From: a virus
DNA length: 64,000 bases
Reading direction: 5' to 3' (one strand)
UHGV virus genome: UHGV-1430915
Shown: piece after piece, positions 11,300-50,572 of the stretch
How the letters are laid out: each line of letters opens with the position of its first letter
Position numbering within the stretch: the stretch's first letter is position 1
Translations under genes and position numbers: made by a program
The notes under the pieces: generated by a model
What the model was told of the DNA's origin: nothing
The model's database searches: none
What the model saw: the letters and a program-made list of their open reading frames with translations, nothing else

Positions 11300-11346
11300 T
11301 TATTTCTCCAAAGTAAAACTTAAATATTTCCCGAACAATTTAGGGC

Positions 11347-11736
11347 TTACTCATCACCAAGGGTCTGGACTTGAACCTTGTTACCCAGAGCCTCAAGCTT
11401 GTCTAACACAGCCTGTGCTGCTTTAGCGCCACCAGTTGCCAGCAATTTATCCTTGGCAAAAGTAACACCACGCACAGCAACAACCAGTTTATATTTCTTT
11501 GTGCCAAGAGGTTCAGCGATATGCACTTTACCAGCGGAGTCTGGAATTAAAGCACGATCCACCAGAACGCCGTAAGCGTCTGAACCGTCCTGATTGGCAA
11601 TGCTACCATCTTTGGTCACAACCGTGCCAGCGTGGTGATGCTCTGTCAGTGTAATTTCCATCTCTTTAAAATTGTAGCCAGCATCGCTAGAATCAACTTT
11701 GCCGAGCACGATATCAGAATATTGAGTGGTAATCAT
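11347..11736 (-). CDS. putative head decoration protein
   Basis: 129-aa ORF between scaffold and capsid genes (lambda D position). Confidence 0.4.
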   Translation of the reverse strand: MITTQYSDIVLGKVDSSDAGYNFKEMEITLTEHHHAGTVVTKDGSIANQDGSDAYGVLVDRALIPDSAGKVHIAEPLGTKKYKLVVAVRGVTFAKDKLLATGGAKAAQAVLDKLEALGNKVQVQTLGDE

Positions 11737-11756
11737 TTATTTCCCCCGTTAATGTC

Positions 11757-12734
11757 TTATTTGGCAGATTCTGCACGTGCACGAGCAAGTGCTTTTGCAA
11801 CGTTTTCAGCAAGAACTTCTTCTGCGGATTTTGCAATATCATCCACAACAGGTTCGCCATCATTACCATGTTCAGTGGTGGCAAACTCTTCTTTGGTTTT
11901 ATGCACCTCTGCTTCCAGCTCTTTAATTTTGGCTTGAGCTTTCTCCAGCATAGCTACGATAGGTTCGTTAGCTTTTTCCAGCATGAAGTCAACCAGGGTT
12001 GCATGATCTTCTTCACCAACAAAGCTTAAAGCTTGAGCTTTAGCCAGCATTTTAGCTTTTTCAACTTCAACCTGGGCCTTGATGATTTCTTCAGCTTTAC
12101 TCTGGGTTGCTTTCAGCTCTTCTACTTGCTTCAGCAGATCCAGATACTCTTTAGTTTTGGTTACGTCCACCGGATTCTCCTCGGTATTTGCGGATTTTGC
12201 AACATCATCCACCTCGGTAGTTTTATCCACCTCAGCAGGTTCCTGTACCGCCTTGATCAGGTTCCCTTCTTTATCGAAGAGATCAGCGGTTACTTGTTCA
12301 AAAATCTGTTGTGTTTTTAACAGACTGTACTGATCTACCACGCTAAGCTGCTTGCCTTCTTTTGCAGCTTTATGAATGGTCACGTTATCACAACGCTCTT
12401 CCAGCCATGCAATGCAAGACTCTGCGTCAGCTTGCGCCCATTCCCAATCAGGATGCTCTTTAGCCCAAGCTTCCTCTTCAATCTCAAAACCAAGCATGTG
12501 TGCGAGTGCTTTGGCATCGTCATACCACATATCGAAGAAACGACGCAGGTATTCTTCAAAACTCAGCTCCACAGTAACTTGGCGAAGTGCCTTAACAATA
12601 TCGTCTGTTAACTGCTCAGGCTGGAGATCACTCTTCATCAAAAGAGATACAGGTCTGTTGTTAGCGCTATAGCCTTGCGCCTTATGGCACAGGGCAATCC
12701 CCTTCTCTTTAATAGTGATTGTTTTTTCAGACAT
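11757..12734 (-). CDS. scaffolding protein
   Basis: 325 aa, highly charged E/K/A-rich coiled-coil sequence between portal-side genes and capsid. Confidence 0.6.
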   Translation of the reverse strand: MSEKTITIKEKGIALCHKAQGYSANNRPVSLLMKSDLQPEQLTDDIVKALRQVTVELSFEEYLRRFFDMWYDDAKALAHMLGFEIEEEAWAKEHPDWEWAQADAESCIAWLEERCDNVTIHKAAKEGKQLSVVDQYSLLKTQQIFEQVTADLFDKEGNLIKAVQEPAEVDKTTEVDDVAKSANTEENPVDVTKTKEYLDLLKQVEELKATQSKAEEIIKAQVEVEKAKMLAKAQALSFVGEEDHATLVDFMLEKANEPIVAMLEKAQAKIKELEAEVHKTKEEFATTEHGNDGEPVVDDIAKSAEEVLAENVAKALARARAESAK

Positions 12735-13138
12735 TATTCATTGCCCTCTTCTACAACACTGATCCCGAAATTTACGTTGGTAATTTCGCCCGTCTCTTCA
12801 TCAACATTACCTGTTGCCTGAATGCTTAGGCCACCAACAATGCCAGCCTTCTTAGCTTCCCATAATTCAGGATTATTGTATTTAACTTTAGCAACCCAAG
12901 AGCCAGCCTTGATGACCTGCTCAGTACCAATTACTACAACATCAAACTCTTCTTGAATCCACGTCTTTTCAATGGTGAAAGCATCTGTGGAGGTCAAGTG
13001 GAAAAGGTTTTCAGAAACTAGGCCTGCGGCGTATGCTGCGTCCCAATTATCTTTAGCCTTTTTGATGGTGTCTTTACTCATCCACTCACCGTGAGCATCT
13101 TTAGTGTCAGGTTCGTAGATGATTTCGTAGGAAATCAT
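12734..13138 (-). CDS. hypothetical head morphogenesis protein
   Basis: ORF after portal; start placed at Met with AGGAAG RBS downstream of portal stop; no protease motif recognised. Confidence 0.35.
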   Translation of the reverse strand: MISYEIIYEPDTKDAHGEWMSKDTIKKAKDNWDAAYAAGLVSENLFHLTSTDAFTIEKTWIQEEFDVVVIGTEQVIKAGSWVAKVKYNNPELWEAKKAGIVGGLSIQATGNVDEETGEITNVNFGISVVEEGNE

Positions 13139-13220
13139 TTCTTCCTGTGGCATCTTATTCCCCATGTGGATTATTTTATCACGCCAAAGGAGGTTTTGCA
13201 ACCCCCTGTGTTGATAATTT

Positions 13221-14777
13221 TTAATTTTCCATGTTAGATATGGAATTATCTCTGGTCGATGACATCTTAGAAGTGCCGTTGCCAGTGGATCCTGCAGCCA
13301 TACCATCACCAGCCCTGCTGATGTCCTGGCCCAAGAGCTTCATCAGCTCTTCCTGATCCATGTCTTCGTCAAATCTTTCATCAAACCCGCCTACCTCAAG
13401 AATCTTATTAATTACTGCAGGAGTTTTTGGCAAGTAACCTACAGCACCGATCCTCTGGACAAACTTGGAGAAGCTCTCCATGTCCACTTCTTCAATCAGA
13501 CCAGGTTTCAGTTTAGGCATATCATCATCTTCAAGGATGATACCATTCAATGCCAGAAGCTGTGGAATAAGATCTTTATTGAAGGCCTCAGTGATAATAT
13601 CTATATCACGCTGAACAAAATGACCATGAATGGACTGTTTTGACTCAGACAGAGAGAAGGATCCGACGTTATCGTTACCGAGGTTAATAAATCCAGCACC
13701 GAAACGGTCAAGAATCGCCTTCTTACGGGCATCAATCAAATCTTTAGTAGAATACTGCTTACCCATACCATCAACCCCCTTCAGGGTCATGGAGTAAAGC
13801 TCTTTACCAGACTTATCTCTATCAGACGGAAGTATAAAGAAACTTTGCTCCCCACTATGGGCGTTTGCTGCGTCCAACATAAGATCTGCAACCATTCTCC
13901 CTTCCATCGAATTCGGGTCAATGCTGGCCTTGTTCAAAATATTGGAAGGAATTTTCAGCTCAAGCACACCACCAAGGTCTTTGGAGCAGCCAACAACCTC
14001 AAGGTTTTCAATCAAAACTTTCTCACGGAAAGATCTGTAGCAACCTATCATCGGTGACACACCTGCAGGATTAGATTCTGTTCCTGACAGAGTCATGAGC
14101 ATAAGCTTTTTAGCAGGGATGAAAATTTCAGGCTCATTAAAGCCTTTTGAAGGCATTGCAGCGAGAGGTCCAGCCCAGCGTGCATTCTGAGTGTTTAGAA
14201 ATGCATTAGGTGACTGATAAATACCTGTCAGTGTTCTGCTATTCTTGTCAAAGACAAACGGCTCTGATCTGGACAAACTGGCCTGTGGTCGGAATGCAAT
14301 TTTATCAATAAGAAGCATCCCGGCATATTTACCTTCTTTCTCTCTGCGGTATACTTTCTCAAACAGTGAAAAACCATACTCGTTAAAGGTAGCTGCGCTT
14401 CTTGCAATATCTCGAAGAGTTTGTTGGTTTGCCAAATTACGCAAAGAATACTCTATAAGCTCGGCGGCTTTCTTAGAGTCTTCACTTTTAACATTATAAA
14501 GGATCTTAAAATCATTGAATGCTTTCGTGATGAAAACATATTTTGTATCTAAGGCAGTAGCAACTGTGGAATCACATTTCATAGTCTCCACTGTGGCAAT
14601 CAGCTGAGGCCAACGCAATTCCTCAACCATCATAGATTGTGATTCTGCCATAATTTGGGAAAGTGCGCCAGAACCGATCTCACTCATACGAACATTATGA
14701 GTTGGTGCGCCTGCGTTCCCAGATTTATTCACAGTTTTGGCTGTGGCGTTGTGTTTCCTGCGGTTCTTTTTGGACAC
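13221..14777 (-). CDS. portal protein
   Basis: 518-aa ORF immediately downstream of terminase large subunit. Confidence 0.7.
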   Translation of the reverse strand: MSKKNRRKHNATAKTVNKSGNAGAPTHNVRMSEIGSGALSQIMAESQSMMVEELRWPQLIATVETMKCDSTVATALDTKYVFITKAFNDFKILYNVKSEDSKKAAELIEYSLRNLANQQTLRDIARSAATFNEYGFSLFEKVYRREKEGKYAGMLLIDKIAFRPQASLSRSEPFVFDKNSRTLTGIYQSPNAFLNTQNARWAGPLAAMPSKGFNEPEIFIPAKKLMLMTLSGTESNPAGVSPMIGCYRSFREKVLIENLEVVGCSKDLGGVLELKIPSNILNKASIDPNSMEGRMVADLMLDAANAHSGEQSFFILPSDRDKSGKELYSMTLKGVDGMGKQYSTKDLIDARKKAILDRFGAGFINLGNDNVGSFSLSESKQSIHGHFVQRDIDIITEAFNKDLIPQLLALNGIILEDDDMPKLKPGLIEEVDMESFSKFVQRIGAVGYLPKTPAVINKILEVGGFDERFDEDMDQEELMKLLGQDISRAGDGMAAGSTGNGTSKMSSTRDNSISNMEN

Positions 14778-14879: not shown

Positions 14880-16427
14880 TTAGATAAAACGCTTGAACAT
14901 AGAAGGTGATGAGATTGATGGAATCACACAAGGCAGCGCTACCTCCTCTTTCTCCAGGAAATTAATCGCAGAAGCTACACAGTCGGCCCAGTCGTCTTTT
15001 CTGTTAAATGTTGATCTTTCCCCGTTGAACTTTTCAAGTTCAGTCAGAAATGCTTCCAGAGTGTCAGGATGGAAACTGGATTTTACAATCCTCACCATTC
15101 CTTGTTGGGCAAGATTGGCAAAAGGTGAGAACCTTGTCAGTTTAGATTTGTTGGAAGGCATTGGATCTTCTTCAACCCTGAACCCTTCGGCGAGCAAGGA
15201 TCTGGACGAGGTTAAGAATTCACTCTTACCTGCCTGACCGGGGTCCACAGAAAATACGATTATGCAATCATCTCCATCAAACTGCGCCTGTTTCCTGATG
15301 ATCACATCTCGTTCCCCAGCCTTTTTACAGAACTTGCCTTCCAGACCTGTGGAATACCTACCGTCATCCACGTTCTCAGGACAATAATCCCCGGACAGGT
15401 AATAAAAGCCGTCGCTATCTTTACTTACCTTAACACTGGCGGTAAAGTCAGGAAATTTATTACCGGAAGTTCTCTCGGTTCCTGCCTTATCCCATGCCCT
15501 GCAAGATACTGATCCAAGAGGTACTCTATCGGCATCCCGAAGGAAAGATCTTTGGAAATAGTTTGCACCTTCAGGTTTGGCAAACCAGTTGCCATGAAGA
15601 AGCTGGGCTTTTTCAAGCTCGGGCAGACCTTCAAGGAAAGCAAGGTATTCTGGGTTGTCTCTCAAGCAGACAGGATTATCGAAAATTGTTGCGCCTATAA
15701 ACGAGAATGACAACGGTCTTGGCTTGATCTCCACACCCAGTCCGTTAACCGTGGTGTATTTCTCTATTAACTCCTCTTTAGAGTCTCCCCAGATAAACTC
15801 ACCGTCGCGTCGGATAAAATATCTTTTCTTACCACATTTCTCCGGGTCTGGATACCCTTCATCGTCCAACCACCACCTAACCAGTTTGGCAAGCATGTGT
15901 TCTGAGTCTGGGTTACAGCTGATAACCATTCTTGATGGATACTTTGACTGAGATCGCAGACGAGACATCAAATAGTCTATCTGCTCCCATTCGAATTGCG
16001 TGCCTTCATCGAAGCAAACCATGGTGTACTCAAGGCCTTGATGGTTAAGCTTATCTTGGACATACTCCATGTGGCAGTATTTTACAACGGCCCCTTTTTT
16101 GCTCCTGTCCCACTTGCCAGTGCTCGGATCAAACCGTGGAAAAATAAACTTATGATCCTTCTCTCTGAACTTTGGTTTAATGTTTTCAGGCAGATCACTG
16201 TAAATAGCTACTGCTTTAGGCCATAGACCACCCTCACCTTCCAACTGTGGAGTTGTTCTTCGGAACATAACCACAGAGCTGTGCGGGTCATCAATAATTT
16301 TAAGCGGCATTAGCTGCAAGAGGAACGACTTGCCAGACCCAGCTGCACCTCCGATCACCAAAATATCTGCATCGTTCTCTAGGATCATCTTCTGCTTTTC
16401 AGAACACGGTCCGTAAATCTTAGACAT
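14880..16427 (-). CDS. terminase large subunit
   Basis: Walker A motif VIGGAAGSGKSF near N-terminus, 515 aa, precedes portal. Confidence 0.85.
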   Translation of the reverse strand: MSKIYGPCSEKQKMILENDADILVIGGAAGSGKSFLLQLMPLKIIDDPHSSVVMFRRTTPQLEGEGGLWPKAVAIYSDLPENIKPKFREKDHKFIFPRFDPSTGKWDRSKKGAVVKYCHMEYVQDKLNHQGLEYTMVCFDEGTQFEWEQIDYLMSRLRSQSKYPSRMVISCNPDSEHMLAKLVRWWLDDEGYPDPEKCGKKRYFIRRDGEFIWGDSKEELIEKYTTVNGLGVEIKPRPLSFSFIGATIFDNPVCLRDNPEYLAFLEGLPELEKAQLLHGNWFAKPEGANYFQRSFLRDADRVPLGSVSCRAWDKAGTERTSGNKFPDFTASVKVSKDSDGFYYLSGDYCPENVDDGRYSTGLEGKFCKKAGERDVIIRKQAQFDGDDCIIVFSVDPGQAGKSEFLTSSRSLLAEGFRVEEDPMPSNKSKLTRFSPFANLAQQGMVRIVKSSFHPDTLEAFLTELEKFNGERSTFNRKDDWADCVASAINFLEKEEVALPCVIPSISSPSMFKRFI

Positions 16428-16714
16428 TAACCTCTCTCCTTTGGAAACAGTGTTCTTATATAGTCTTGCAAAATGATCAATTTAGCTCTATCATTACTAC
16501 AAGACAGGTTATTATCCCTCATAATGCCAGAATTCACCGCATCTGGCGCACCTTTCTTCAAAGGGATAGCTTTAGCAGGTGGTTTCATAGCACCCTCGGG
16601 AGGTTTAACAATCAACCTTCCTACATCCGGAGGGTCAATCTTGTATTCTCTCTCAACGCTGGTTGCACACCCACACAATAACAAGCACAAAACAACCAGT
16701 GCAGTAACTCTCAT
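16427..16714 (-). CDS. o-spanin (Rz1-like outer membrane lipoprotein)
   Basis: Signal peptide with lipobox-like LLLCGC, proline-rich mature region, overlaps i-spanin by 4 nt. Confidence 0.6.
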   Translation of the reverse strand: MRVTALVVLCLLLCGCATSVEREYKIDPPDVGRLIVKPPEGAMKPPAKAIPLKKGAPDAVNSGIMRDNNLSCSNDRAKLIILQDYIRTLFPKERG

Positions 16715-17109
16715 CGAACCTCCTGATTGATACTCTCATTATAAATATCTATTAGCTGATCAGGAAGTGTTGACTTCTTACCTTCAGGAGATTGGAGGTA
16801 GATAATCTGCTTTTCTTTACCTGCCTTCTCAGCCATATTTAATTTATCCTGTAGATCAGAAAGAGATTTTTCAAGGTTTTTAACCTCCTCTGCGTGGCCC
16901 ATTTTAATTTTGTCGGCCTGCTTTTGTTGTTGGTCAAGGATCCGTTCCCACTTTAACTCTGTTGCTGACACACCTTCTTGATAAGCATCATTGAGCTTAG
17001 AGTTAAACCAATACACGGCCCCAAGATAAGCCATGCCTATAGCCGCTGCAAAAACTAAACCTTTTATGATCCCTCTGTGTTTACTCATCAATGTTAAAAC
17101 TGAAATCAT
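16711..17109 (-). CDS. i-spanin (Rz-like)
   Basis: N-terminal transmembrane helix followed by charged coiled-coil; adjacent to lipoprotein partner. Confidence 0.6.
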   Translation of the reverse strand: MISVLTLMSKHRGIIKGLVFAAAIGMAYLGAVYWFNSKLNDAYQEGVSATELKWERILDQQQKQADKIKMGHAEEVKNLEKSLSDLQDKLNMAEKAGKEKQIIYLQSPEGKKSTLPDQLIDIYNESINQEVR

Positions 17110-37507: not shown

Positions 37508-37738
37508 ATGAGTCATAACTCCAAGTGGAAGGATCTTGGTTTTGCAAGTCGGGCAGAATATGTTGGTTGGCTTTGGTTCAACGGTCTGACAAACGATATT
37601 AAAATGTATGATGATGTTTACTATGACGAGTATACAGGTAAAATTATAAATATCTCTGTAGAAGAGGATACCTTTGTCCAGCAAGATACTGATACCTGCC
37701 TTGATAAATACGTTGATGAAGTGGAGGAAGCAAATTGA
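37508..37738 (+). CDS. hypothetical protein
   Basis: Start at MSHNSKW with GGTGG RBS; overlaps nrdA start. Confidence 0.35.
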   Translation: MSHNSKWKDLGFASRAEYVGWLWFNGLTNDIKMYDDVYYDEYTGKIINISVEEDTFVQQDTDTCLDKYVDEVEEAN

Positions 37739-40050
37739 TCACCAAGGTAATTAAAAGCAACGGATGTGAAGTGGCATTCGATCCAGAACGTTTAAATAAG
37801 GCGGCTATTTTCGGTGACGACGGTAACGGCAATTGGTCACATATTGCACTGGATGCATACAAGCGGCTGTATGATGGATGTACAACCAAAGAAGTTAACC
37901 AAGCTATTATAGACTCTTGTGTTAGCCGTAAAGACGAAGCACATTCCCGTATGGCTGGTCGTGTTCTTATTGGTCAGATTTATAAAGAGGCTTTTGGAGG
38001 GTTTACAAAGATCCCTTCCTTACCATCATTTTACAATACCATGGTTGAGAAAGGGTATTGGGAGGATATGGGTTATAGCTTTACCGAGCTAAACACTTTA
38101 GACGCTGTTATTGACCACAGTAAAGATCTCGGTTATGGCTATGCAGTCCTTAAACAGTTTCGAGACAAATACGGGATCAAGGATACTCTTAAAGACACCC
38201 TGTTCGAATCTCCACAGATGATGTTTATGGGGATAGCGATGGCTGTCATGAAAAATATGCCGAAAGAACGCCGTATTGACGATGTTGTAAAATTATACAC
38301 TTATCTGTCAGACTTAAAGATCAATGCCCCGACACCGTACTTAAACGGGCTGCGCACAGGCAAGACAGGGTATGCATCTTGTTGTGTAATAAAAGCTGAC
38401 GATACAGCAAAATCTATTGGTGTGGCACGTGAAGTTGCATACACAATGACGGTTAACCAAGCAGGTATTGGCTACTATTTATCATCAAGATCTGCAGGTG
38501 ATGGTGTTCGTGGTAACACTATTAAACATATGGGCAAGATTCCATATTATCGAGGTATTGATGCTGGGGTTAAGGAGAACAGACAACAATCACGTGGCGG
38601 TTCTGCAACAGTATCATTCCTTGCACTGGACCCGCAGATTGATGAGCTAATCCGTTTGAGAAACCCTATGACTGTTGCTTCAAAAAGAATCAACACCATG
38701 GACTACTCTATAGGTATTAATAGGTCGTTTATCAACCGTGTGGCTAAAAATTTAGATTGGATGCTTGTTTCTTATAAGCACGCGCCTCAACTGCATGAAG
38801 GTATCTTCACCATGTCTATGGAGGAGTTTGATGCCGAGGTTGATCGTATCGCTAAAGATGACAGTATTCCTAAAACATGGATCCGAGCTAGAGATCTTGC
38901 TGTTGAGCTGATCACGCAGCGCACCGAGGTTGGAAGGTTGTACGTATACTGGACAGATGAGATGAATAGACATACACCTTTTAAAGATGTGATCTATTCA
39001 AGTAACCTGTGTGCAGAAATAGCCCTCCCGACAAAAGGCTATTCAGATATGCGTAATATCTTCAAGTACGATGTTGATGATGGCGAAGTTGCATTGTGCT
39101 TCCTGTCATCTCTTGTAGCTGGAAGGGTTACCCCAGAGGAGTATGAGGATGTTGCATACTACACGGTGCTTATGATTGACAATGTTATGGAAATCATGAC
39201 ATATCCGTATGAAAATATGGAGAGCACTGTTAAAAAACGCAGATCCATCGGGGTTGGCCTTACCAATGTTGCACATTTTATTGCCAGCCACAAGGTTGCT
39301 TACGGGTCTCCTGAAAGTAAACAGCTTGTTCACGATCTTGCAGAGCTCCACAGCTACAGCTTGCATAAGGCAAGTTTACGATTGGCAAAAGAGCGGGGTG
39401 TCTGTGAGTGGATGCATAAAACAAAATACCCGGAGGGTTGGTTACCAATCGACACTTATAACAAAGAGGTCGATAGTGTGGTGAAAGATCCTTCTCTTAA
39501 GCAGGATTGGGAAGGGTTACGTAAAGAAATCATTGAAAATGGTGGGCTACGTAATAGCGTTCTTGAAGCATATATGCCTAATGAAAGCTCTTCGCTGGCA
39601 ACAAACACCACTAACGGGGTTTATCCTGTCCGTGAGCACATTATCTTTAAAAAGTCGCCACAAGGGCAGGTGCTGTTTATCGTTCCTGAATATGATGAAC
39701 TGAAAGAGTATTATACCTCTGCCTGGGACGTTGATACTAACGACATGATTGATATGTATGCTGTGATTCAAAAATTCACAGGACAGGCAATTAGTGCTGA
39801 CCTATATATTGATTACACCAAGTTGAAAGATGGTAAAATTTCAATGAAGGAGCAGCTGGGGTATCTTATCCGTGCTACTAAATTCGGGATGAAGACATGG
39901 TATTACTTAAACTCTCGGGTTGGTGCTGGTGACTCTTTGACAGAGGAGCTTCACGCGAAGAAACAGGCTGAAGATGAAACCAGAAAGAACTATCCTTTGA
40001 TTGCAGATAGTTCAGTTGAAGATCCATATTGCGAAAGTTGTGCACTGTAA
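37735..40050 (+). CDS. nrdA: ribonucleotide reductase class Ia large subunit
   Basis: 771 aa, N-terminal ATP-cone-like segment, followed by nrdB; typical phage nrd operon. Confidence 0.85.
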   Translation: MITKVIKSNGCEVAFDPERLNKAAIFGDDGNGNWSHIALDAYKRLYDGCTTKEVNQAIIDSCVSRKDEAHSRMAGRVLIGQIYKEAFGGFTKIPSLPSFYNTMVEKGYWEDMGYSFTELNTLDAVIDHSKDLGYGYAVLKQFRDKYGIKDTLKDTLFESPQMMFMGIAMAVMKNMPKERRIDDVVKLYTYLSDLKINAPTPYLNGLRTGKTGYASCCVIKADDTAKSIGVAREVAYTMTVNQAGIGYYLSSRSAGDGVRGNTIKHMGKIPYYRGIDAGVKENRQQSRGGSATVSFLALDPQIDELIRLRNPMTVASKRINTMDYSIGINRSFINRVAKNLDWMLVSYKHAPQLHEGIFTMSMEEFDAEVDRIAKDDSIPKTWIRARDLAVELITQRTEVGRLYVYWTDEMNRHTPFKDVIYSSNLCAEIALPTKGYSDMRNIFKYDVDDGEVALCFLSSLVAGRVTPEEYEDVAYYTVLMIDNVMEIMTYPYENMESTVKKRRSIGVGLTNVAHFIASHKVAYGSPESKQLVHDLAELHSYSLHKASLRLAKERGVCEWMHKTKYPEGWLPIDTYNKEVDSVVKDPSLKQDWEGLRKEIIENGGLRNSVLEAYMPNESSSLATNTTNGVYPVREHIIFKKSPQGQVLFIVPEYDELKEYYTSAWDVDTNDMIDMYAVIQKFTGQAISADLYIDYTKLKDGKISMKEQLGYLIRATKFGMKTWYYLNSRVGAGDSLTEELHAKKQAEDETRKNYPLIADSSVEDPYCESCAL

Positions 40051-40054
40051 TTTA

Positions 40055-40078
40055 AAAAGGGGCTTCGGCCCCATTTTA
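40055..40078 (+). terminator. candidate intrinsic terminator/attenuator
   Basis: GGGGC-ttcg-GCCCC hairpin followed by ATTTT between nrdA and nrdB. Confidence 0.45.
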
Positions 40079-40089
40079 GAGGTAGAATA

Positions 40090-41178
40090 ATGGCTGTATT
40101 TAATACTGAGAACACTGCTCATAAAACTGGTGATTATCCGCTGTTTTTAGGACAGCAGATGGGGATGTACGACTCTATTAACAAAAAGTACCCACAGCTG
40201 TTTGAACTATACAAAAAACAAAAAGAACAAGATTGGGCAGAGGACGAAGTAGATTTGTCACAGTCTATTTCGGATTTCGTAACATGCTCAAAGTCAACTT
40301 ACGATGTGATGGTGCAGACACTTATGTGGCAATGGGAGGCAGACAGTGTTGCAGCAAGATCTATCATTTGTCTGTTTTCACCATTTATCACCAATAGTGA
40401 ACTTTTCACCTTGTTGATGAAGCAGTCTGAGATTGAGGTTCTTCATGCATTAACTTACTCAGAGATTGTTAGACAATGCCTTCCTAATGCTCGTGAGATT
40501 ATAGAAGAGATTCAGGAAAACCAGAACGTGCTGAGCAGATCTGGAGTTATTGTCAAATATATGCAAGAGCTTGAGGTTATTGGTGCAAAATACCGACTGG
40601 ATCCTTCCAGTGTTGAAGAGGATGTTGTACGGAAATGTATCCTTAGAGCACTTTTTGCACTTTTAGCTCTAGAAAGTATTGAGTTTATTGCAAGTTTTGC
40701 ATGTACGTTCGCAGTAGCTGAGCAAGGTATTTTTGTTCAAGTTGCACAACTCGTTCAAAAAATTATGCTTGATGAAATGCTGCATTCGAAAGGCGATTTT
40801 GCTATCATCGATATCCTGCTTGATGATCCTGCATGGGAGCAAAGCTTTCTTGAGATTAAGGGTGAGTTAAAAGAAATTCTTGACGAAGTGCGAATCAAGG
40901 AGTACGGTTGGAGTGACTATATTTTCAGCGAAGGAAGAGCAATTATAGGTCTTAACTCACCATTACTTAAAGAATGGGTTGACTATAACTGCTCACCGAT
41001 TTATGATTACTACAACATCGACAAAGACTTTGTGCCGCCAACAAAGGACCCGTTACCGTTTATGCAGGTGTGGATGAAACCTTCACTGCAACAGACGGCT
41101 AACCAGGAAATGTCTAACACCGACTACCGCGTCAACACAACTGTTAATGACGCTGAAGAAGAAATTTGGGAGTTTTAA
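40090..41178 (+). CDS. nrdB: ribonucleotide reductase class Ia small subunit
   Basis: 362 aa, position after nrdA, helical protein with conserved acidic/His-containing helices. Confidence 0.75.
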   Translation: MAVFNTENTAHKTGDYPLFLGQQMGMYDSINKKYPQLFELYKKQKEQDWAEDEVDLSQSISDFVTCSKSTYDVMVQTLMWQWEADSVAARSIICLFSPFITNSELFTLLMKQSEIEVLHALTYSEIVRQCLPNAREIIEEIQENQNVLSRSGVIVKYMQELEVIGAKYRLDPSSVEEDVVRKCILRALFALLALESIEFIASFACTFAVAEQGIFVQVAQLVQKIMLDEMLHSKGDFAIIDILLDDPAWEQSFLEIKGELKEILDEVRIKEYGWSDYIFSEGRAIIGLNSPLLKEWVDYNCSPIYDYYNIDKDFVPPTKDPLPFMQVWMKPSLQQTANQEMSNTDYRVNTTVNDAEEEIWEF

Positions 41179-41181
41179 TAT

Positions 41182-41460
41182 ATGAGTTGTGAAAAATCTT
41201 TTTTCATTATCATCTACGGTAAGGATAACTGCCCACATTGTGTAAGAGCAAAAGAATTTGCAGTAAGCAAAGGTATACCTTTCGTATACAAGACGCTCGG
41301 TGAAGGATACACAAAAGAAGAGCTTATTGAGAAGTGTAGTCCATTTGTTCCCAGAACGTTGCCTCAGATCTTCTTGGAAAGCAACCTTGATAGTGTCCAC
41401 ATAGGTGGTGCTGACGATTTCATCTCTTTTGTTAAGAATGGTCTTGGAGAGAAAAAGTGA
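41182..41460 (+). CDS. glutaredoxin/thioredoxin-fold redoxin
   Basis: Active site CPHC at N-terminus of 92-aa protein in nrd operon. Confidence 0.7.
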   Translation: MSCEKSFFIIIYGKDNCPHCVRAKEFAVSKGIPFVYKTLGEGYTKEELIEKCSPFVPRTLPQIFLESNLDSVHIGGADDFISFVKNGLGEKK

Positions 41461-43580
41461 AAGTTGTAAAACGGGACGGCAGAGAAGAGGTCTATAACGG
41501 AGTTAAGGTAATCAAGGCGGCAGAGTCCGCCTTACTTGAGTCTGGGCATACTGAAGAAGAAGCTTACCGGATCGCTTGTGCGGTTAATGAAGTTGTTGCC
41601 AACAATCTACCAACCGACCAGTGCACGATCTCTGTAAAAAATATCCATATCCTTGTTGAAGATGCTCTTATGGATATGGGTTTAAAATGTGCAGCCAGAG
41701 AATATATCCAGTATAGACAGACAAGAGATAATAACAGAGAGGCAGGTGGAAAACTGCTTGCAGATATTAGTGGCTTCTTGGATCGAACTTGTGATGAATT
41801 TACAAAAGAAAACGCAAATAAGCCCACTAATCATGTACATACTCATCGTGACCTGCTTGCAGGTATCCTTAGCAAACACCTTGCATCAACACAGATACTG
41901 CCAGATCGTGTCTCCGAAGAGCACAACAAGGGATTCATCCATGTGCATGATCTTGACTATCTGATCAGTCCGTTAACAAACTGCTGTTTGGTGAATTATC
42001 CGGATATGCTGGAAAACGGATTCAACATTGGCAACGCCCATGTCAGTAAGCCGAAGTCAATAGGGGTTGCAACAACAATCCTCAGCCAAATCTCTAGTGC
42101 AGTAGCTAGTGCTCAATATGGTGGTCAGACCATGAGCCATATTGATCATTATCTGGCGCAGTATGCTGAAGCAACCTATGAGAAGAATCTTAAATTTTGT
42201 CAGGAACATTGGTTGCCGGATGCTGAGACTGTTGCAATGCAAATGACGGATAAAGACGTGTTTGATAGTATGCAAACTTTGCTATACCAAATCAATACGT
42301 TAACTTCTGTCAACGGGCAAACTCCATTCATCACATTAAGTTTAGGACTGGATACCTCAATCTTTGGTAGAATGATTACCAAAAACTACCTGAAAGTCCA
42401 CAAAATGGGTCTTGGTGAAGAACGTATCACACCTGTGTTCCCTAAGGTGTTGTTCTTCCTGGAGGAGGGTATCAACATGAACCCCGAGGATCCTAACTAT
42501 GATTTGAAACGATTAGCTCTGGAATGCTCTGCAGAGCGGATTTATCCTGACTTCGTATCTGTACCACTAAATAGAAAAGTGACAGGTTCAACAGAAGGTA
42601 ATGTCACAAGCATGGGTTGCCGGAGTTTTCTTAGCAAATACAATGACTTGGAAACAGGAGAGGAGAAATACCTTGGCAGATTTAACTTAGGTGTTGTTAG
42701 CCTTAACCTACCAATGATTGCAGCCAAAGCTAAAACGGAAGGTGTTGATTTCTTTGCAGTTCTTGACGAGTACTTGGATCTGGCCTACGAGGCTCACCTT
42801 GTAAGGGTTAACCGTCTAAAAGGAACAAAGGCAGGGCAGAACCCCATCATGTGGTGTGAAGGAGCCCTTGCTCGCCTGGATCCTGAAGAGAGTATTGATA
42901 AACTCTTCTATGACGGGTATGCTTCCATAAGTATTGGATATATTGGTGTGTATGAAACCTGCCAGATTTTAGGCAGAGAGGGAGACAAGTCCTTAGCTCT
43001 TGGGATCCTTCAGCACATGAAAGACGCTTGTGATCGGTACAAAAAAGAAAGTGGTCTGGCATTCAGCTTGTACGGCACTCCTTCAGAGAGCTTGTGCTAT
43101 AAGGCTGCAACATGTCTAGATCGTGAATATCCTGAAGTGTTGAAGCACGAGCACGAATACCTTACCAACAGTTTCCACCAGCCCGTGTGGATCAATAGTT
43201 CACCTTTTGACAAGTGGAAGTATGAGGAAGGTTTTGCTATGATCTCTTCTGGCGGCAACATTGGATACATAGAAACACCTAACCTGAAAAACAACCTGGA
43301 TGCTTTGGAAGCCCTTGTCGATTTCGGGTATAAACACATTATGTATTTTGGTATTAACCAACCTGTGGATAAATGCCTTAAGTGTGGATTCTCTGGTGAG
43401 TTCAGTGCAACAGCTAAAGGCTTTGTATGCCCAGAGTGTGGAAACCATGAAGAAGGAACGATCAGCGTGATTAGACGTGTATCTGGGTATTTGTCTAGTC
43501 CAAACTCCCGTCCTTACAACAAAGGTAAGCAAGCGGAAGTTATAGAACGGGTTAAGCACTACGGAAGTTGTGGTTGCTGA
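41457..43580 (+). CDS. nrdD: anaerobic ribonucleotide reductase class III
   Basis: 707 aa, C-terminal glycyl-radical motif RRVSGYL preceded by Cys zinc site CLKCG...CPECG; followed by nrdG. Confidence 0.85.
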   Translation: MKVVKRDGREEVYNGVKVIKAAESALLESGHTEEEAYRIACAVNEVVANNLPTDQCTISVKNIHILVEDALMDMGLKCAAREYIQYRQTRDNNREAGGKLLADISGFLDRTCDEFTKENANKPTNHVHTHRDLLAGILSKHLASTQILPDRVSEEHNKGFIHVHDLDYLISPLTNCCLVNYPDMLENGFNIGNAHVSKPKSIGVATTILSQISSAVASAQYGGQTMSHIDHYLAQYAEATYEKNLKFCQEHWLPDAETVAMQMTDKDVFDSMQTLLYQINTLTSVNGQTPFITLSLGLDTSIFGRMITKNYLKVHKMGLGEERITPVFPKVLFFLEEGINMNPEDPNYDLKRLALECSAERIYPDFVSVPLNRKVTGSTEGNVTSMGCRSFLSKYNDLETGEEKYLGRFNLGVVSLNLPMIAAKAKTEGVDFFAVLDEYLDLAYEAHLVRVNRLKGTKAGQNPIMWCEGALARLDPEESIDKLFYDGYASISIGYIGVYETCQILGREGDKSLALGILQHMKDACDRYKKESGLAFSLYGTPSESLCYKAATCLDREYPEVLKHEHEYLTNSFHQPVWINSSPFDKWKYEEGFAMISSGGNIGYIETPNLKNNLDALEALVDFGYKHIMYFGINQPVDKCLKCGFSGEFSATAKGFVCPECGNHEEGTISVIRRVSGYLSSPNSRPYNKGKQAEVIERVKHYGSCGC

Positions 43581-43583
43581 TAC

Positions 43584-43613
43584 TTGACAAAAGCCACAAG
43601 GATGTGGCATATT
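43584..43613 (+). promoter_or_regulatory. weak sigma70-like promoter with hairpin CCACA-agga-TGTGG
   Basis: TTGACA followed by hairpin and TATTGT-like element; weaker -10 spacing. Confidence 0.35.
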
Positions 43614-43643
43614 GTTATCACACAGTAAACTAGGAGGTGCAGT

Positions 43644-43760
43644 ATGTCTACAGGTATTTATAAAATTTGCAAGTGCGGTTGTCATTGCAATCTTCGTTGG
43701 TGTAAGGCACTGGACGATTTTATTTGGCATTGTCCTAAATGCGATGCGGAGTACTTATGA
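43644..43760 (+). CDS. small Cys-rich zinc-ribbon protein (38 aa)
   Basis: ATG after AGGAGG RBS; sequence MSTGIYKICKCGCHCNLRWC...HCPKCDAEYL; stop overlaps nrdG start (ATGA). Confidence 0.4.
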   Translation: MSTGIYKICKCGCHCNLRWCKALDDFIWHCPKCDAEYL

Positions 43761-44230
43761 ATATTGTCGGATACACAGAAATATCCTACACCGAAGGGCC
43801 GGGTCTCAGGACGGCCTTGTGGGTATCTGGGTGCCCACACGCTTGTCCTGGTTGCTTTAATCAAGCATTTTGGTCAAAAGATAAGGGAAGAGAATTCACC
43901 GAAGAAGATTTGCAGAGAATTTTGTCAGATTTAGACAATGAATCTATATGCGGTATTTCTTTGCTTGGTGGAGAACCTTTGGCTACGTATAATGAGCCCG
44001 GTATTATTAAACTTATGAGGAGAATTAAGGAAAAGTTTGGTGACAAGAAAACTATTCTTGTGTATACTGGGTTCACATTTGAGCATATCTCTAGTGATGT
44101 TCTTGAGCTGGCTGATATCATCATTGATGGCAAGTATGTAAAAGATTTACCAACAAAGAAACCATTCCGAGGCAGCGATAACCAAAGAATGTTTAAAAAG
44201 GTAGCAGGCGGTTGGGTTCAGGTTGACTAG
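43757..44230 (+). CDS. nrdG: anaerobic ribonucleotide reductase activating enzyme (radical SAM)
   Basis: N-terminal Cys cluster GCPHACPGC typical of NrdG; follows nrdD. Confidence 0.75.
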   Translation: MNIVGYTEISYTEGPGLRTALWVSGCPHACPGCFNQAFWSKDKGREFTEEDLQRILSDLDNESICGISLLGGEPLATYNEPGIIKLMRRIKEKFGDKKTILVYTGFTFEHISSDVLELADIIIDGKYVKDLPTKKPFRGSDNQRMFKKVAGGWVQVD

Positions 44231-44233
44231 TCG

Positions 44234-44263
44234 TTGACAAAGCTTTGGTAAGTTGGTTATAAT
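44234..44263 (+). promoter_or_regulatory. sigma70 consensus promoter TTGACA-N18-TATAAT
   Basis: Consensus hexamers downstream of nrdG. Confidence 0.5.
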
Positions 44264-44292
44264 TATCGTAATGAAAGCAGAGGAGGTGCCAA

Positions 44293-44406
44293 ATGGCTAA
44301 AAAAGCCTTGAAGAAGGCGTACAAGAAAGAGATTGCGCTTGAGCTTAAGAAAAAACACAAGCGTGAAAAGAAATGTCATGAAGATGAAGAGGGGGTGCAA
44401 CAGTGA
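44293..44406 (+). CDS. small highly basic peptide (37 aa)
   Basis: GGAGGT RBS, MAKKALKKAYKKEIALELKKKHKREKK...; stop overlaps GTG start of next ORF. Confidence 0.35.
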   Translation: MAKKALKKAYKKEIALELKKKHKREKKCHEDEEGVQQ

Positions 44407-44753
44407 CACAAGAGCGTATTGATTTAGCCAGTAAGTTTGTAGATCTCATTTTGCCACGGTTGGTTACTCAACATGCAGACGCTATTTCTACCAATCTTGA
44501 TGGCTTACGCCTAATGCTGAACCGAACAGATGATCCACGTATTCGGGCCGATTTAGAGGCCTCTGCCAACAAACTGGAAAAGTTCTTGCAAGTAGATACG
44601 CAAGAAGCCTTGCACAAGATTATGGTGGAAGGTTTCTCTAAAGAATTCACCGTTAAAGAGCTTAAGGAGCTGATCCGCCAAGAAGAGATGAATATCCGAG
44701 TTCAGGCTGTTGCAAGCAGCATGGAAGCGGCTATTGAAAAACTGTTGCAGTAG
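44403..44753 (+). CDS. hypothetical protein
   Basis: 116-aa helical ORF. Confidence 0.45.
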   Translation: MTQERIDLASKFVDLILPRLVTQHADAISTNLDGLRLMLNRTDDPRIRADLEASANKLEKFLQVDTQEALHKIMVEGFSKEFTVKELKELIRQEEMNIRVQAVASSMEAAIEKLLQ

Positions 44754-44791
44754 AAGTTCTTGACACATCTCAATCTGAAAGGAGTCCCAAC

Positions 44792-45580
44792 ATGGGTCGA
44801 GCTAAAGAAACAAAACGCATGCGTGATGAAGCCAAAGAGGCTCGCAAATCTGATCGTCTGCGTAAGGCTGCTGAGAAATTTGCTGACGAACGAGAGCACA
44901 CAGCTCCAGCTCTCAGACCAATGAACAAAAAGCAGCAAAAGTATCTTGATTATCTAGGATCGCGTAAGATTATTATTGTAAACGGTGTGTTTGGATCCGG
45001 TAAGACATTCATGGCATCCGCATATGCAGGTGATCTTTTGCGTAAGAACGAGATTGATAAGATCATTGTTGCACGCCCTTACGTTCAGACAGGAAAGACT
45101 TCAGGGTTTAAACCTGGAAACGCAATGCAGAAACTGTGGCCCTATCTCCGAAGCATGATGGACACGATTTGTCGTCGTGTTGGCAAAGGTGCTTTTGCCG
45201 CAATGCTGGGGGATGGTCAGAACAGTCGTATCGAGATCTGTGAAGTTGAAAGCATTCGTGGTCGTAGTTTCGATGAGCGGTGCTTTGTCCTAATTGACGA
45301 GGCACAGCAAACTAACCCTGAAGAAATGTTATCAATTATCACAAGGATCTCTGATCAGGCCACACTTGTAATCATGGGTGATAATAGCCAACGTGACATC
45401 CCTGGTAAGTCTGGGCTTGCATGGGTAACGGATTTCTTTACTCGTCATCCAGATCCTGAGGTTGGGATGATTAGCTTTGATAGTCCAGACGATGTCGTTC
45501 GTTCTGGGTTGGGTCGTCAGATCGCACTCAATCTTATTGAGGATCGTGCAAATCATATTTGGACCCCTGTTTCCGAGTAA
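44792..45580 (+). CDS. phoH: PhoH-like ATPase
   Basis: Walker A VNGVFGSGKTFMA and overall PhoH-family architecture, 262 aa. Confidence 0.8.
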   Translation: MGRAKETKRMRDEAKEARKSDRLRKAAEKFADEREHTAPALRPMNKKQQKYLDYLGSRKIIIVNGVFGSGKTFMASAYAGDLLRKNEIDKIIVARPYVQTGKTSGFKPGNAMQKLWPYLRSMMDTICRRVGKGAFAAMLGDGQNSRIEICEVESIRGRSFDERCFVLIDEAQQTNPEEMLSIITRISDQATLVIMGDNSQRDIPGKSGLAWVTDFFTRHPDPEVGMISFDSPDDVVRSGLGRQIALNLIEDRANHIWTPVSE

Positions 45581-45624
45581 TACAGAAGGGTGGTTATTCC
45601 ACCCTTAAATATCTAAAACAGTTG

Positions 45625-45653
45625 TTGACAAATAGGTAAGCTTTAGATATTAT
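45625..45653 (+). promoter_or_regulatory. sigma70-like promoter TTGACA-N17-TATTAT
   Basis: Consensus hexamers upstream of 45682 ORF. Confidence 0.5.
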
Positions 45654-45681
45654 TATCGGACAAAACAGAGAGAAGGACAGT

Positions 45682-45993
45682 ATGGCTACAATACAAGAGA
45701 AACTGAATAAAATATACTGCCTGTTTGTCTATAACGGCGAGACAATTTTGGCAAATAAGGGATCCAAGAATGTGTGGACCAAGGCCAGCGGTGGTAATAT
45801 AATTAACTTAGCGTTGCTACGTGAGCGCCGACACAGATTCTTTATCGAGTCTCGAATTATTGAAAGCAGCACTTGCTACAGAACAGGCGATAAAGTAATT
45901 GTTGACAATGATACGTGGTATGTGGTAGACTGGCAATCATTGAGCTGTGATGCTTCTGACAATCGTAAGTATTCCATAGTGATTGCTAAATAA
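45682..45993 (+). CDS. hypothetical protein
   Basis: 103-aa ORF. Confidence 0.45.
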   Translation: MATIQEKLNKIYCLFVYNGETILANKGSKNVWTKASGGNIINLALLRERRHRFFIESRIIESSTCYRTGDKVIVDNDTWYVVDWQSLSCDASDNRKYSIVIAK

Positions 45994-46053
45994 AGGTAAA
46001 TGTGAATCAGGTTTAAATAAATAGCTTTCAACTTCCAATATTAAGGATTTCTC

Positions 46054-47103
46054 ATGAATTTAACACCTCGCAGAACCATGGTACACGGCATGAAAGAAAA
46101 ACAGAACGGTTTCGAACCTATGAGTAATAAAATGTTTGGTATGCCGGGCGGTATCATGGAAACATACAGCTACCCAACACCTGTTGTTGACCACGTTCTT
46201 TATATCGACGATTTGGAAGACTTACAAGACCATATGTCTCGTCTGCAGACGATCCGTATGGCTCAGCCGGAAGAAAGCATTCGGGTGATCATCAATAGCC
46301 CTGGGGGTTGCGTGCACATTGCAATGGCTTATCTGCAGGCATTCCGAGAGTCTCAGGCAAGCGTTGTCGTACACGCTGAAGGGATGTGCTGCTCAGCAGG
46401 AACAATCTTATGGCTGGGTTGCAAAGAACGCACTGTGGCTCCGGACACAGAATTTATGTTCCACTACTATCAAGGTGGCACTTATGGTAACGGTGTGAAC
46501 ATGAATACTCAGGTCAGCTACTGGAAAAAACGTTTTGAACGCCTGATTGAAAAATACTACGGTGGGGTGCTGACAGAAGATGAGATCGCATCCATCACAG
46601 CTGGCGGTGAAGTGTGGTTGGATGGAGAAGAGCTGGCATCTAGAACTGGTGCTATCATCTTGGACGATGAAAACATTCAGCGCATTCAGAATGGACAGAA
46701 ACCGAAAAAGCTTTTGGCAAAAAGAGATGAAGAAGGTGTGTTAGGTGAGGCAGGCCTTCCAGAGATTCACCAATGCACATCTTTGGACGAGCTGGTTCAT
46801 GCTGTTGAGTCTGCAAAAGAAAATGGTATGAAAGGTGATGTTCACACTGTGTTCCTGAATCTACAGATGGAGAGTGGTGAGACCGTTAAGATTGCACTAG
46901 GTGAGATTACCTCGGAAGATCTGCAGCGATTCTCTGTGGTAGAGCTTCAGGACATTTTGTCCCAATTGAAAACTACCCTGAACGGAGGTGAAGAAGTTCA
47001 GGTGAAAGATAAGACTCGCAAGCGTCTGGTGGACAATATTATTAAAACAGCAAAAGAGCTTAATGAAAAAATCCTGGGCGCAGGAATTGTCGAAGAAGCT
47101 TAA
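46054..47103 (+). CDS. ClpP-family serine protease-like protein with C-terminal extension
   Basis: ClpP signature INSPGGCV, Ser block GMCCSAG, His block FMFHYY; true start may be an internal Met. Confidence 0.65.
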   Translation: MNLTPRRTMVHGMKEKQNGFEPMSNKMFGMPGGIMETYSYPTPVVDHVLYIDDLEDLQDHMSRLQTIRMAQPEESIRVIINSPGGCVHIAMAYLQAFRESQASVVVHAEGMCCSAGTILWLGCKERTVAPDTEFMFHYYQGGTYGNGVNMNTQVSYWKKRFERLIEKYYGGVLTEDEIASITAGGEVWLDGEELASRTGAIILDDENIQRIQNGQKPKKLLAKRDEEGVLGEAGLPEIHQCTSLDELVHAVESAKENGMKGDVHTVFLNLQMESGETVKIALGEITSEDLQRFSVVELQDILSQLKTTLNGGEEVQVKDKTRKRLVDNIIKTAKELNEKILGAGIVEEA

Positions 47104-47154: not shown

Positions 47155-47688
47155 ATGACTTGTGCTAGAAAACCTGACGAACAACGTAACGCCTATGATG
47201 AATATGTGACACCAGAGTGGTGTGCAGAAGGGTTGTATGACCTCATTCCGTTCCCAGAAGATTGGACCTATTTGGAGCCTTGCAGGAATAGCGCCTCAGG
47301 TGTGTTCTACTCCCGTATGCCGTTAGGATCTGCATGGGGAGAAATCCAAGAAGGTGTTGACTATCTGAATACAGAATACAACCATGTTGACTGTATTATC
47401 ACCAACCCGCCGTACAGCCTGGCTCGTGAGTTTGTGGACAAGGCGTTGAAAGATGCCGACGTAGTTATTATGCTTTTGCGTCTTAATTTTCTGGAAAGCA
47501 AGGCCAGATTTGAATGGTGGCTTGATAATGCCCCTACCACTGTGATCACAATATCTAAGCGTCCATCATTCCAATCGAATGGCAGAACTGACGGGCAAGC
47601 ATATGCATATTTTGTGTGGGACAAGAAGAACCGTTTAGACCTACCGCCATTTATGTGGTTGGCACCTCCGGAGGCAGACTTGAAATGA
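47155..47688 (+). CDS. Dam-like N6-adenine DNA methyltransferase (NPPY)
   Basis: YVTPEW N-terminal block and IITNPPYS catalytic motif, 177 aa. Confidence 0.6.
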   Translation: MTCARKPDEQRNAYDEYVTPEWCAEGLYDLIPFPEDWTYLEPCRNSASGVFYSRMPLGSAWGEIQEGVDYLNTEYNHVDCIITNPPYSLAREFVDKALKDADVVIMLLRLNFLESKARFEWWLDNAPTTVITISKRPSFQSNGRTDGQAYAYFVWDKKNRLDLPPFMWLAPPEADLK

Positions 47689-49928: not shown

Positions 49929-50114
49929 ATGACAAAAAATAAATCCTTAGAACAGGCTGAAAACCTTCTCCACGAGCTGGTAAAGGAGTGGAAAGTTGAA
50001 TACTCAGATTTTAATGCAAGAGAGGGGGAAGATTATTGGCCTACGGAGCGCTCAGAGGGAGAGTGGTATCAAGATTTCATAGAATGGCTATATCAGACGT
50101 GCGATGAGGGGTGA
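49929..50114 (+). CDS. hypothetical protein
   Basis: Start at ATG MTKNK; acidic. Confidence 0.35.
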   Translation: MTKNKSLEQAENLLHELVKEWKVEYSDFNAREGEDYWPTERSEGEWYQDFIEWLYQTCDEG

Positions 50115-50572
50115 CGATGTTTGTTAAATATGTAAAAACGTGCCTCAACAACCTTGGTAGAGAGCATTGGTACACACTGCTTGAAAAAGGAGAAATTTTA
50201 ACAAAATCTGGAAAGATAACTTTGATACCTTTGGACGATAAAGACCCGTCACTACTTGTCATAGATGATTACGTTACAGGTGTGTCGTACGAGGTATCTG
50301 TGGAGAGGTTAATACGCAGATCTGGAGGTCCTTATGACCGAAGAGAGTATGTTTTCGATTCCGTTACAGAGAAGGAAGATCCGTCTCTAATGTTTAGGAT
50401 GGTAATCAGGGATATGAAATCATCTATAAATAGGATCGTAAAGGACATTAAGGAGCCTTTTAGGGTAAAAGTTAAGAAGTTTTTTGATTCTAAGATCAAC
50501 ATACTTGCAGTTGTGCTAGGCGTAATTCAACTTCTGTTAATTTTGCACTATTTTGAACTGTTGTTTAAGTAA
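50111..50572 (+). CDS. hypothetical protein with C-terminal hydrophobic helix
   Basis: 153-aa ORF. Confidence 0.4.
   Translation: MTMFVKYVKTCLNNLGREHWYTLLEKGEILTKSGKITLIPLDDKDPSLLVIDDYVTGVSYEVSVERLIRRSGGPYDRREYVFDSVTEKEDPSLMFRMVIRDMKSSINRIVKDIKEPFRVKVKKFFDSKINILAVVLGVIQLLLILHYFELLFK

Follow-up and report, generated by a model that had tools for sequence, protein, structure and literature searches.

Why would an rV5-like phage encode a ClpP-like serine protease so far from the genes that build its head? The window analysed here is a stretch of 64,000 nucleotides from the virus genome UHGV-1430915, and the gene in question lies at positions 46054-47103 on the plus strand, an ATG-initiated open reading frame (ORF) for a protein of 349 amino acids with a Shine-Dalgarno sequence (AAGGA) 7 nt upstream of its start. 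The window is a Vequintavirus (rV5-like) genome, 95-97% identical at the DNA level to the E. coli myoviruses of that group, and the gene is the orthologue of rV5 ORF122 (rv5_gp117). An original prediction, made from the sequence alone, held that the head module contains no recognisable protease, and proposed that this gene encodes either a remotely placed prohead protease or a protease directed at host or defence proteins. The ClpP-like gene solves no missing-protease puzzle, because the head module misses no protease. The reading we favour, with a probability of about one half, is a non-structural, catalytically competent ClpP-fold protease that would act independently of ClpX/ClpA docking on cytoplasmic host or phage targets.

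As a sequence feature the gene is already known, having been annotated since the rV5 genome paper. More than 100 deposited records, rV5 included, label it 'ClpP-like protease', 'ATP-dependent protease' or 'ClpP ATP-dependent protease subunit'. The encoded protein is 99% identical to the 'ClpP-like protease' of phage DrSchubert and matches PHROG 5410 over its full length (E=5.6e-155, 516 bits). What remains of interest is that it belongs to a widespread family of non-head phage ClpP-like proteins, and that this family appears to have lost its ATPase-docking pocket.

A ClpP-fold core with an invariant serine and histidine

Membership of the ClpP family, as first proposed, is borne out far beyond chance. 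Pfam PF00574 (CLP_protease) matches residues 59-168 at 49.1 bits against a gathering cutoff of 20.2 (E=7.8e-13), and ClpP chains in the PDB match at E-values of about 6e-8. An AlphaFold2 monomer model was built from a 13-sequence family alignment; the top 50 structures found with it by Foldseek were all ClpP, with a probability of 1.00 and target-normalised template modelling scores mostly between 0.61 and 0.74. The clade thresholds for SppA/S49 (SDH_protease, 18.5 bits against 31.3) and NfeD (NfeD1b_N, 16.6 bits against 40) were not reached.

The catalytic core, supported by the Foldseek matches and by HMMER alignments to ClpP, spans residues 44-212 (46183-46689, plus strand) and is modelled with a predicted local distance difference test (pLDDT) score of about 90. 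It contains the three sequence blocks on which the family assignment had originally been based, INSPGG (residues 80-85), GMCCSAG (110-116) and FMFHYY (134-139). The serine of the second block, Ser114 (codon 46393-46395, plus strand), corresponds to Ser97 of E. coli ClpP, and the histidine of the third, His137 (46462-46464, plus strand), to His122; both are invariant in 13/13 family members and in a wider phage set. The mapping of the catalytic triad is less canonical at its third position. Glu186, in the motif GGEVW (46609-46611, plus strand), aligns by HMMER with the 'ERD' of ClpP at the position of E. coli Asp171. The window protein has Glu there, as does the Pakpunavirus homologue, most close relatives have Gln, and Asp is found in ICP1, Sugarlandvirus and a T4-like vibriophage. 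At an overall identity of 40%, the active-site blocks INSPGG, CSAGT and MFHxYQG are strictly invariant, which argues for selection on catalysis.

Compared with cellular ClpP (MEROPS S14, PF00574, E. coli ClpP), the phage protein shares the fold, the INSPGG oxyanion block, the nucleophilic serine, the general-base histidine and the handle. The handle region, a Gly-rich strand followed by a long helix (residues 150-169), aligns to ClpP without gaps, and assembly of the core into a ring or barrel is plausible on this ground. Unlike cellular ClpP, it appears to lack a conserved N-terminal gate and helix A, polar residues replace the hydrophobic docking pocket, and the phage-encoded protein carries an additional C-terminal linker and domain of about 137 residues. 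Residues 1-43 (46054-46182, plus strand) are predicted to be disordered, with pLDDT below 50. Within this region, residues 1-23 vary in length across the family, and residues 24-43, at the place where ClpP has its axial loop and its helix A, contain a conserved N-x-FG...Y-P motif (YSYP) in which N25, G29, Y40 and P41 are invariant.

A predicted polar surface in place of the ClpX/ClpA docking pocket

The hydrophobic pocket of E. coli ClpP that receives the IGL/IGF loops of ClpA and ClpX comprises Y60, Y62, F82, I90, M92, F112 and L114 (bioRxiv 10.1101/820209). We mapped these residues onto the phage protein through ungapped HMMER alignment blocks for which INSPGG and the blocks around Ser114 and His137 served as anchors; HMMER alignments were used for E. 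coli ClpP, and MAFFT --add placed its C-terminus wrongly. In the E. coli ClpP sequence used, S97, H122, D171 and all the pocket residues stand at their expected positions. All seven pocket positions are changed. Y60 corresponds to R77, F82 to E99, I90 to H107, M92 to E109 and F112 to T127, and these five polar or charged residues are invariant in the 13-member family; Y62 corresponds to I79 and L114 to A129, neither of which is invariant. The same positions are mostly polar in the homologues from ICP1, Pakpunavirus, Sugarlandvirus and T4-like phages. In addition, the ClpP 'ERD' sensor/triad motif, an oligomerisation sensor, is replaced by 'GGE' or 'GGQ'.

By these alignments the hydrophobic ClpX/ClpA pocket is lost, a point that the existing annotation does not make, and we conclude that the canonical mode of docking is probably not retained. 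With the docking pocket replaced by invariant polar residues, the widely used label 'ATP-dependent' is unsupported.

A lineage-specific C-terminal domain

The extension behind the ClpP core, first put at about 130 residues, is close to that size: the core ends near residue 212 and about 137 residues follow. A helix (residues 205-212) continues into a low-confidence linker of variable length (residues 213-243; 46690-46782, plus strand), which coincides with indel-rich alignment columns and has pLDDT below 50 at residues 222-240. It is followed by a small alpha/beta domain (residues 244-349 or, more narrowly delimited, 244-342; 46783-47100, plus strand) that is specific to the lineage and has invariant F293, E297, R322 and L325. 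The extension as a whole is acidic and partly helical.

A profile of the C-terminal domain, searched against 1.84 billion representative proteins, gave 9 matches at E ≤ 0.001, 5 of which span the full profile. Four of these were retrieved (P0036, P0041, P0043 and the fragment P0040) and all are members of the ClpP-fusion family; P0003, which completes the five, is homologous to the ClpP-like protein over its full length. The remaining 4 comprise a 53-amino-acid fragment of another homologue and three partial matches within long proteins. A structural search with the domain found no structural relative, and neither search revealed any similarity to a scaffold protein. We considered a stand-alone version of the domain, which would be an analogue of lambda Nu3, and rejected it: the 144-amino-acid candidate, P0040, is a fragment, starting inside '...WMDENEILNRV', of a full-length homologue.

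The head module has its own candidate prohead protease

The claim that no protease is recognisable in the head module does not hold. The module, from portal to major capsid protein (10292-14777, minus strand), is defined by PHROG and Pfam matches and by the annotation of a relative, and contains the genes for the portal (13221-14777), scaffold (11757-12734), decoration protein (11347-11736) and lambda-gpE-type major capsid protein (10292-11299), with TerL at 14880-16427, all on the minus strand. The slot between portal and scaffold is filled by a candidate prohead protease of the XkdF/Peptidase_S78_2 type, 139 amino acids long (12734-13153, minus strand), which matches Pfam PF14550 at 64.6 bits against a cutoff of 24 (E=1.2e-17). 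Across diverse XkdF-type homologues the D-x-H-G, NLFH and GGxS motifs are invariant, with D19, H21, H52 and S110 strictly kept. The curated Vequintavirus genomes of the BASEL collection annotate the same series as portal, 'prohead protease', head scaffold, decoration and major capsid protein. With XkdF/HK97-type prohead proteases (PF14550) the head-module ORF shares the D-x-H-G and GGxS motifs and the position between portal and scaffold. This family differs from the ClpP-like protein in fold and family, so the two proteases of the window genome are unrelated.

The ClpP-like gene is indeed remote from the head module, as had been noted, some 30-33 kb away and on the opposite strand. The idea of a remotely placed prohead protease now has against it the filled slot, the PhoH and nucleotide-metabolism context of the gene, and the absence of its product from the 19 virion proteins of rV5. 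We are fairly confident that the ClpP-like protein is not the prohead protease. In published mass spectrometry of rV5 virions, a peptide of the capsid protein has residue 5 as its first residue and lies immediately behind a tryptic cleavage site, and the rV5 capsid protein is therefore not N-terminally trimmed. The substrate of the XkdF-type head protease is probably the scaffold.

The best PHROG match of the XkdF-type protease is PHROG 1530, labelled 'DNA methyltransferase', and RefSeq NC_041871, NC_041869 and others carry 'DNA methyltransferase' in the head module where the BASEL genomes have 'prohead protease'; the label looks like a propagated mis-annotation. The program-called form of the protease ORF (12734-13309, minus strand) is 191 amino acids long, has a GTG start and overlaps the portal gene, whereas curated relatives use the 139-amino-acid form starting MPQEEM. 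In the close relative HeinrichReichert (MZ501073), TerL is annotated as a two-piece join split by a homing-endonuclease gene, whereas the TerL gene of the window is contiguous. A split or intron-containing terminase was considered for the window as well and dismissed: the ORF at 16711-17109 (132 amino acids) encodes an Rz-like i-spanin, and no Rfam intron match was found in 16300-16850.

A nucleotide-metabolism neighbourhood with a host-type promoter

The ClpP-like gene belongs to a plus-strand block that adjoins the ribonucleotide reductase genes (NrdA/B, glutaredoxin, NrdD/G). Locally the order is PhoH-like ATPase, a 103-amino-acid ORF, the ClpP-like gene, a Dam-like methyltransferase and small ORFs. 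The PhoH-like ATPase (44792-45580, plus strand; Pfam PhoH, 161 bits) lies upstream in 16/17 related loci and in ICP1, and the N6-adenine DNA methyltransferase (47155-47688, plus strand; PHROG 799) lies directly downstream in 17/17. The order from PhoH through ClpP and the methyltransferase to orf124 is kept in 16 of these 17 related loci from IMG/VR, down to about 42% identity in ClpP. A promoter scan found a sigma-70-type promoter, TTGACA-17-TATTAT with 11/12 matches, at 45625-45653 (plus strand), equivalent to P121 of the rV5 annotation. No terminator-like site was found between the 103-amino-acid ORF, orf121 (45682-45993, plus strand; PHROG 5456), and the ClpP-like gene, and the promoter is predicted to drive both. 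A second, perfect (12/12) sigma-70 promoter, TTGACA-18-TATAAT, lies just past nrdG at 44234-44263 (plus strand) and is equivalent to P118 of the rV5 annotation.

Two neighbours were considered as partners of the ClpP-like protein and set aside. The orf121 gene was detected beside it in closer relatives only. PhoH, as a dedicated ATPase partner, is close by in rV5-like loci and in ICP1, a proximity that Pakpunavirus, Sugarlandvirus and the T4-like vibriophage do not show, and PhoH is not an unfoldase-type ATPase; we treat the proximity of the two genes as inherited synteny.

Multidimensional protein identification (MudPIT) of rV5 virions detected 19 proteins, none of which is the ORF122 product. 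At 50111-50572 (plus strand), within the non-structural block and some 3 kb past the ClpP-like gene, the window encodes a homologue of rV5 gp133 (PHROG 7821, 'virion structural protein'). The rV5 paper calls gp133 a 'predominant' virion protein, yet its mass spectrometry table gives 2 peptides and 2 spectra, and its Table S3 lists one transmembrane domain. The structural status of gp133 looks weak.

Homologues in phages with their own capsid proteases

Full-length members of the family are restricted to large myoviruses of the rV5-like type, with contigs of about 120-150 kb. Taken by itself, the core shares 26-36% identity with shorter 'ATP-dependent protease' proteins of unrelated phages (PHROG 1827), and in none of the four phages compared does the homologue lie in a head module. 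The homologue in Vibrio phage ICP1 (gp211, 326 amino acids) has nrdAB and PhoH as neighbours, that of the T4-like jumbo vibriophage D484 neighbours dihydrofolate reductase and a DNA-repair gene, that of the T5-like Sugarlandvirus FZ41 (FZ41_8) neighbours a deoxynucleoside monophosphate phosphatase, and that of the Pakpunavirus Zigelbrucke (orf044) is surrounded by small early-type ORFs. The prohead proteases gp21 and pb11 are well known as the dedicated enzymes of T4-like and T5-like phages. For ICP1, the transcriptome study (PMC7567579) gives capsid maturation as the role of gp125, a member of the late capsid cluster; the range gp176-gp211 is put with nucleotide-metabolism genes, whose peak at 12 min precedes the late genes. 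Homologues outside the head modules of phages that have their own capsid proteases argue for a non-structural protease.

The PHROG 1827 proteins (ICP1 gp211, the KVP40-type vibriophage ClpP, Pakpunavirus orf044 and FZ41_8) share with the window protein the invariant Ser and His, with Asp or Glu as the third residue, and the loss of the hydrophobic pocket. ICP1 gp211 also has a long C-terminal tail, and most of the others are 180-245 amino acids long. The rV5-type C-terminal domain, with its F293, E297, R322 and L325, is specific to the Vequintavirus-like clade and is not found in the PHROG 1827 proteins.

Between cellular ClpP and the head-maturation proteases

Where does the ClpP-like core stand among its better-known relatives? 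The NCBIfam models of cellular ClpP score 20-41 bits against cutoffs of 228-361; for the equivalog models TIGR00493 and PRK00277 the figures are 32.9 bits (cutoff 308.6) and 37.8 bits (cutoff 249). Among curated models the highest score, 62.1 bits where the cutoff is 120, goes to NF045542, 'head maturation protease, ClpP-related'. Among PHROG families, 5410 (516 bits) and 1827 (136 bits), neither of them a head family, rank ahead of the head-maturation families 1684 (85 bits) and 94 (67 bits); the head-maturation families 1684, 94, 2976 and 133 match with E-values from 1e-23 to 6e-15, and the match to 1684 runs to residue 259, beyond the ClpP core. By these profiles the core is best placed in a phage-specific ClpP clade, below the membership thresholds of both the cellular ClpP and the head-maturation models.

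The ClpP-related head-maturation proteases (NF045542; PHROG 1684, 94 and 133) are likewise phage-encoded and ClpP-folded. Among curated relatives of the core they score best; they function independently of Clp ATPases, and many have C-terminal extensions. Compared with them, the window protein scores at half of the cutoff, is encoded outside the head module and was not detected in virions, and both its promoter type and its gene neighbourhood point to a metabolic or early-middle block. An origin by exaptation from a ClpP-like prohead protease is possible, and this possibility keeps a morphogenetic role alive at low probability.

Proposed role and alternative explanations

Direct support for the favoured reading comes from the family, the fold, the catalytic residues, the loss of the pocket, the gene context, the separate head protease and the absence of the protein from the rV5 virion proteome. 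In this reading the protein would be a catalytically competent serine peptidase using Ser114, His137 and, in place of Asp, Glu186. It would be expressed early or in the middle of infection from the host-type sigma-70 promoter, together with the small upstream ORF, in the block that runs from PhoH through ClpP to the Dam-like methyltransferase. The retained handle region makes assembly into ClpP-like rings that enclose the active sites probable. The polar cluster (R77, E99, H107, E109, T127) and the rebuilt N-terminal gate suggest that it is not a subunit of host ClpXP or ClpAP, and it may act alone or with a non-canonical partner. Substrate choice or gating could be provided by the flexibly tethered orphan C-terminal domain and the polar patch, and during takeover the protein would cleave host or phage proteins or peptides in the cytoplasm. 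The suggestion of a protease against host or defence proteins, made at the outset, comes close to this reading and fits all observations, but its defence part found no backing: PADLOC gave no defence or anti-defence link for the ClpP-like protein, only a spurious Csx1 match (E=0.0057).

Several points weigh against a non-structural, ClpX/ClpA-independent protease. Profile scores place the core a little closer to the head proteases of phages than to cellular ClpP. Gln as the third triad residue in most relatives casts some doubt on full catalytic efficiency. Prohead proteases commonly leave the capsid, so that absence from mature virions is compatible with a transient role in proheads, and gp133, a reported virion protein, comes from the same block, so that gene position is not decisive. 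The loss of the pocket is read from an alignment and not from an assembled model, and a literature search found no experimental work on phage non-head ClpP proteins.

The alternative closest to the original prediction is a remotely encoded second maturation protease of the capsid or virion, directed to proheads by its C-terminal extension and cutting scaffold, portal or internal proteins beside or instead of the XkdF-type enzyme. Lambda gpC, which carries the Nu3 scaffold sequence at its C-terminus, is a model for such an arrangement, and the acidic, partly helical extension, the NF045542 match of 62.1 bits, the head-maturation matches in PHROG, with that to 1684 reaching residue 259 past the core, and the reported virion protein gp133 from the same block all speak for it. 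However, the NF045542 score is half of the cutoff, the C-terminal domain has no scaffold similarity, and a conserved XkdF/S78 protease with intact motifs already sits in the portal-scaffold slot. The ClpP-like gene, moreover, follows a sigma-70-type promoter among nucleotide-metabolism genes, on the opposite strand and at a distance of about 30 kb, and mass spectrometry of rV5 virions did not detect its product. The N-terminus of the rV5 major capsid protein is retained from residue 5 on, and short orthologous forms occur in ICP1, T4-like and T5-like phages that have dedicated prohead proteases. We regard a second maturation protease as quite improbable.

Two further alternatives connect the protein with host ClpP. 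As a canonical subunit it would serve host ClpX or ClpA, alone or in mixed rings with host ClpP, and redirect ATP-dependent degradation; the E. coli host does supply ClpX and ClpA, and the ClpP fold, the Ser-His-acid triad (with Glu for Asp) and the handle region are kept. The seven changed pocket positions, five of them invariant polar or charged residues, speak against docking, as do the replacement of the N-terminal loop and helix A by a Pro-containing segment predicted to be disordered, the change of 'ERD' to 'GGE' or 'GGQ', and scores of 20-41 bits where the NCBIfam ClpP models require 228-361, and we consider this role unlikely. Alternatively, a weakly active or inactive decoy or poison subunit might enter mixed assemblies with host ClpP or tie up its partners. 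Host ClpP-dependent proteolysis would then be blocked, which could, for instance, shield phage proteins or prevent antitoxin degradation. Gln at the third triad position of most relatives would suit such a subunit, as would a ring-forming core that has lost its docking pocket and that, within host rings, would cripple the docking of ClpX/ClpA. Against this stand Ser114, His137 and the active-site blocks, which are strictly invariant at 40% overall identity, and co-assembly with host ClpP is unsupported; a decoy seems to us very unlikely.

A broader form of the favoured reading, that of an autonomous ClpP-fold protease, can be put forward tentatively, and we hold it to be less probable than not by a clear distance. 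Large virulent phages from unrelated lineages, namely the rV5-like phages, ICP1, T4-like vibriophages, Sugarlandviruses and Pakpunaviruses, might share a dedicated ClpP-derived, unfoldase-independent protease for host takeover or counter-defence, in which the former pocket has become a conserved polar surface and to which the rV5 clade has added an orphan C-terminal domain. The chamber of such a protease could, for example, be open at all times and degrade particular host proteins, in the manner of ClpP deregulated by acyldepsipeptides (ADEP). If these proteins are autonomous host-directed proteases, they would constitute a new class of phage takeover or counter-defence effector, and would illustrate how ClpP can function in nature with no unfoldase. 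The Vequintavirus phages of the BASEL collection and ICP1 are available as tractable models.

Gene order in ICP1 and related database records

The ICP1 genome MW794191 (108154-118588) and the window (37735-47103) have a common gene order, from nrdA and nrdB to PhoH, small ORFs and a long ClpP-like protein. The ClpP cores of ICP1 and the rV5-like phages are about 36% identical and the PhoH proteins about 22%. This linkage of nrd, PhoH and ClpP is absent from Pakpunavirus, Sugarlandvirus and the T4-like vibriophage. The common order may represent a shared ancient module or a functional linkage.

Among the database records related to the window are about 18 unannotated GenBank entries, MG0656xx, named 'Campylobacter phage' with Campylobacter jejuni as host. 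In both regions searched they are 95-97% identical to E. coli rV5-like phages, which suggests a host mislabel or contamination in that dataset.

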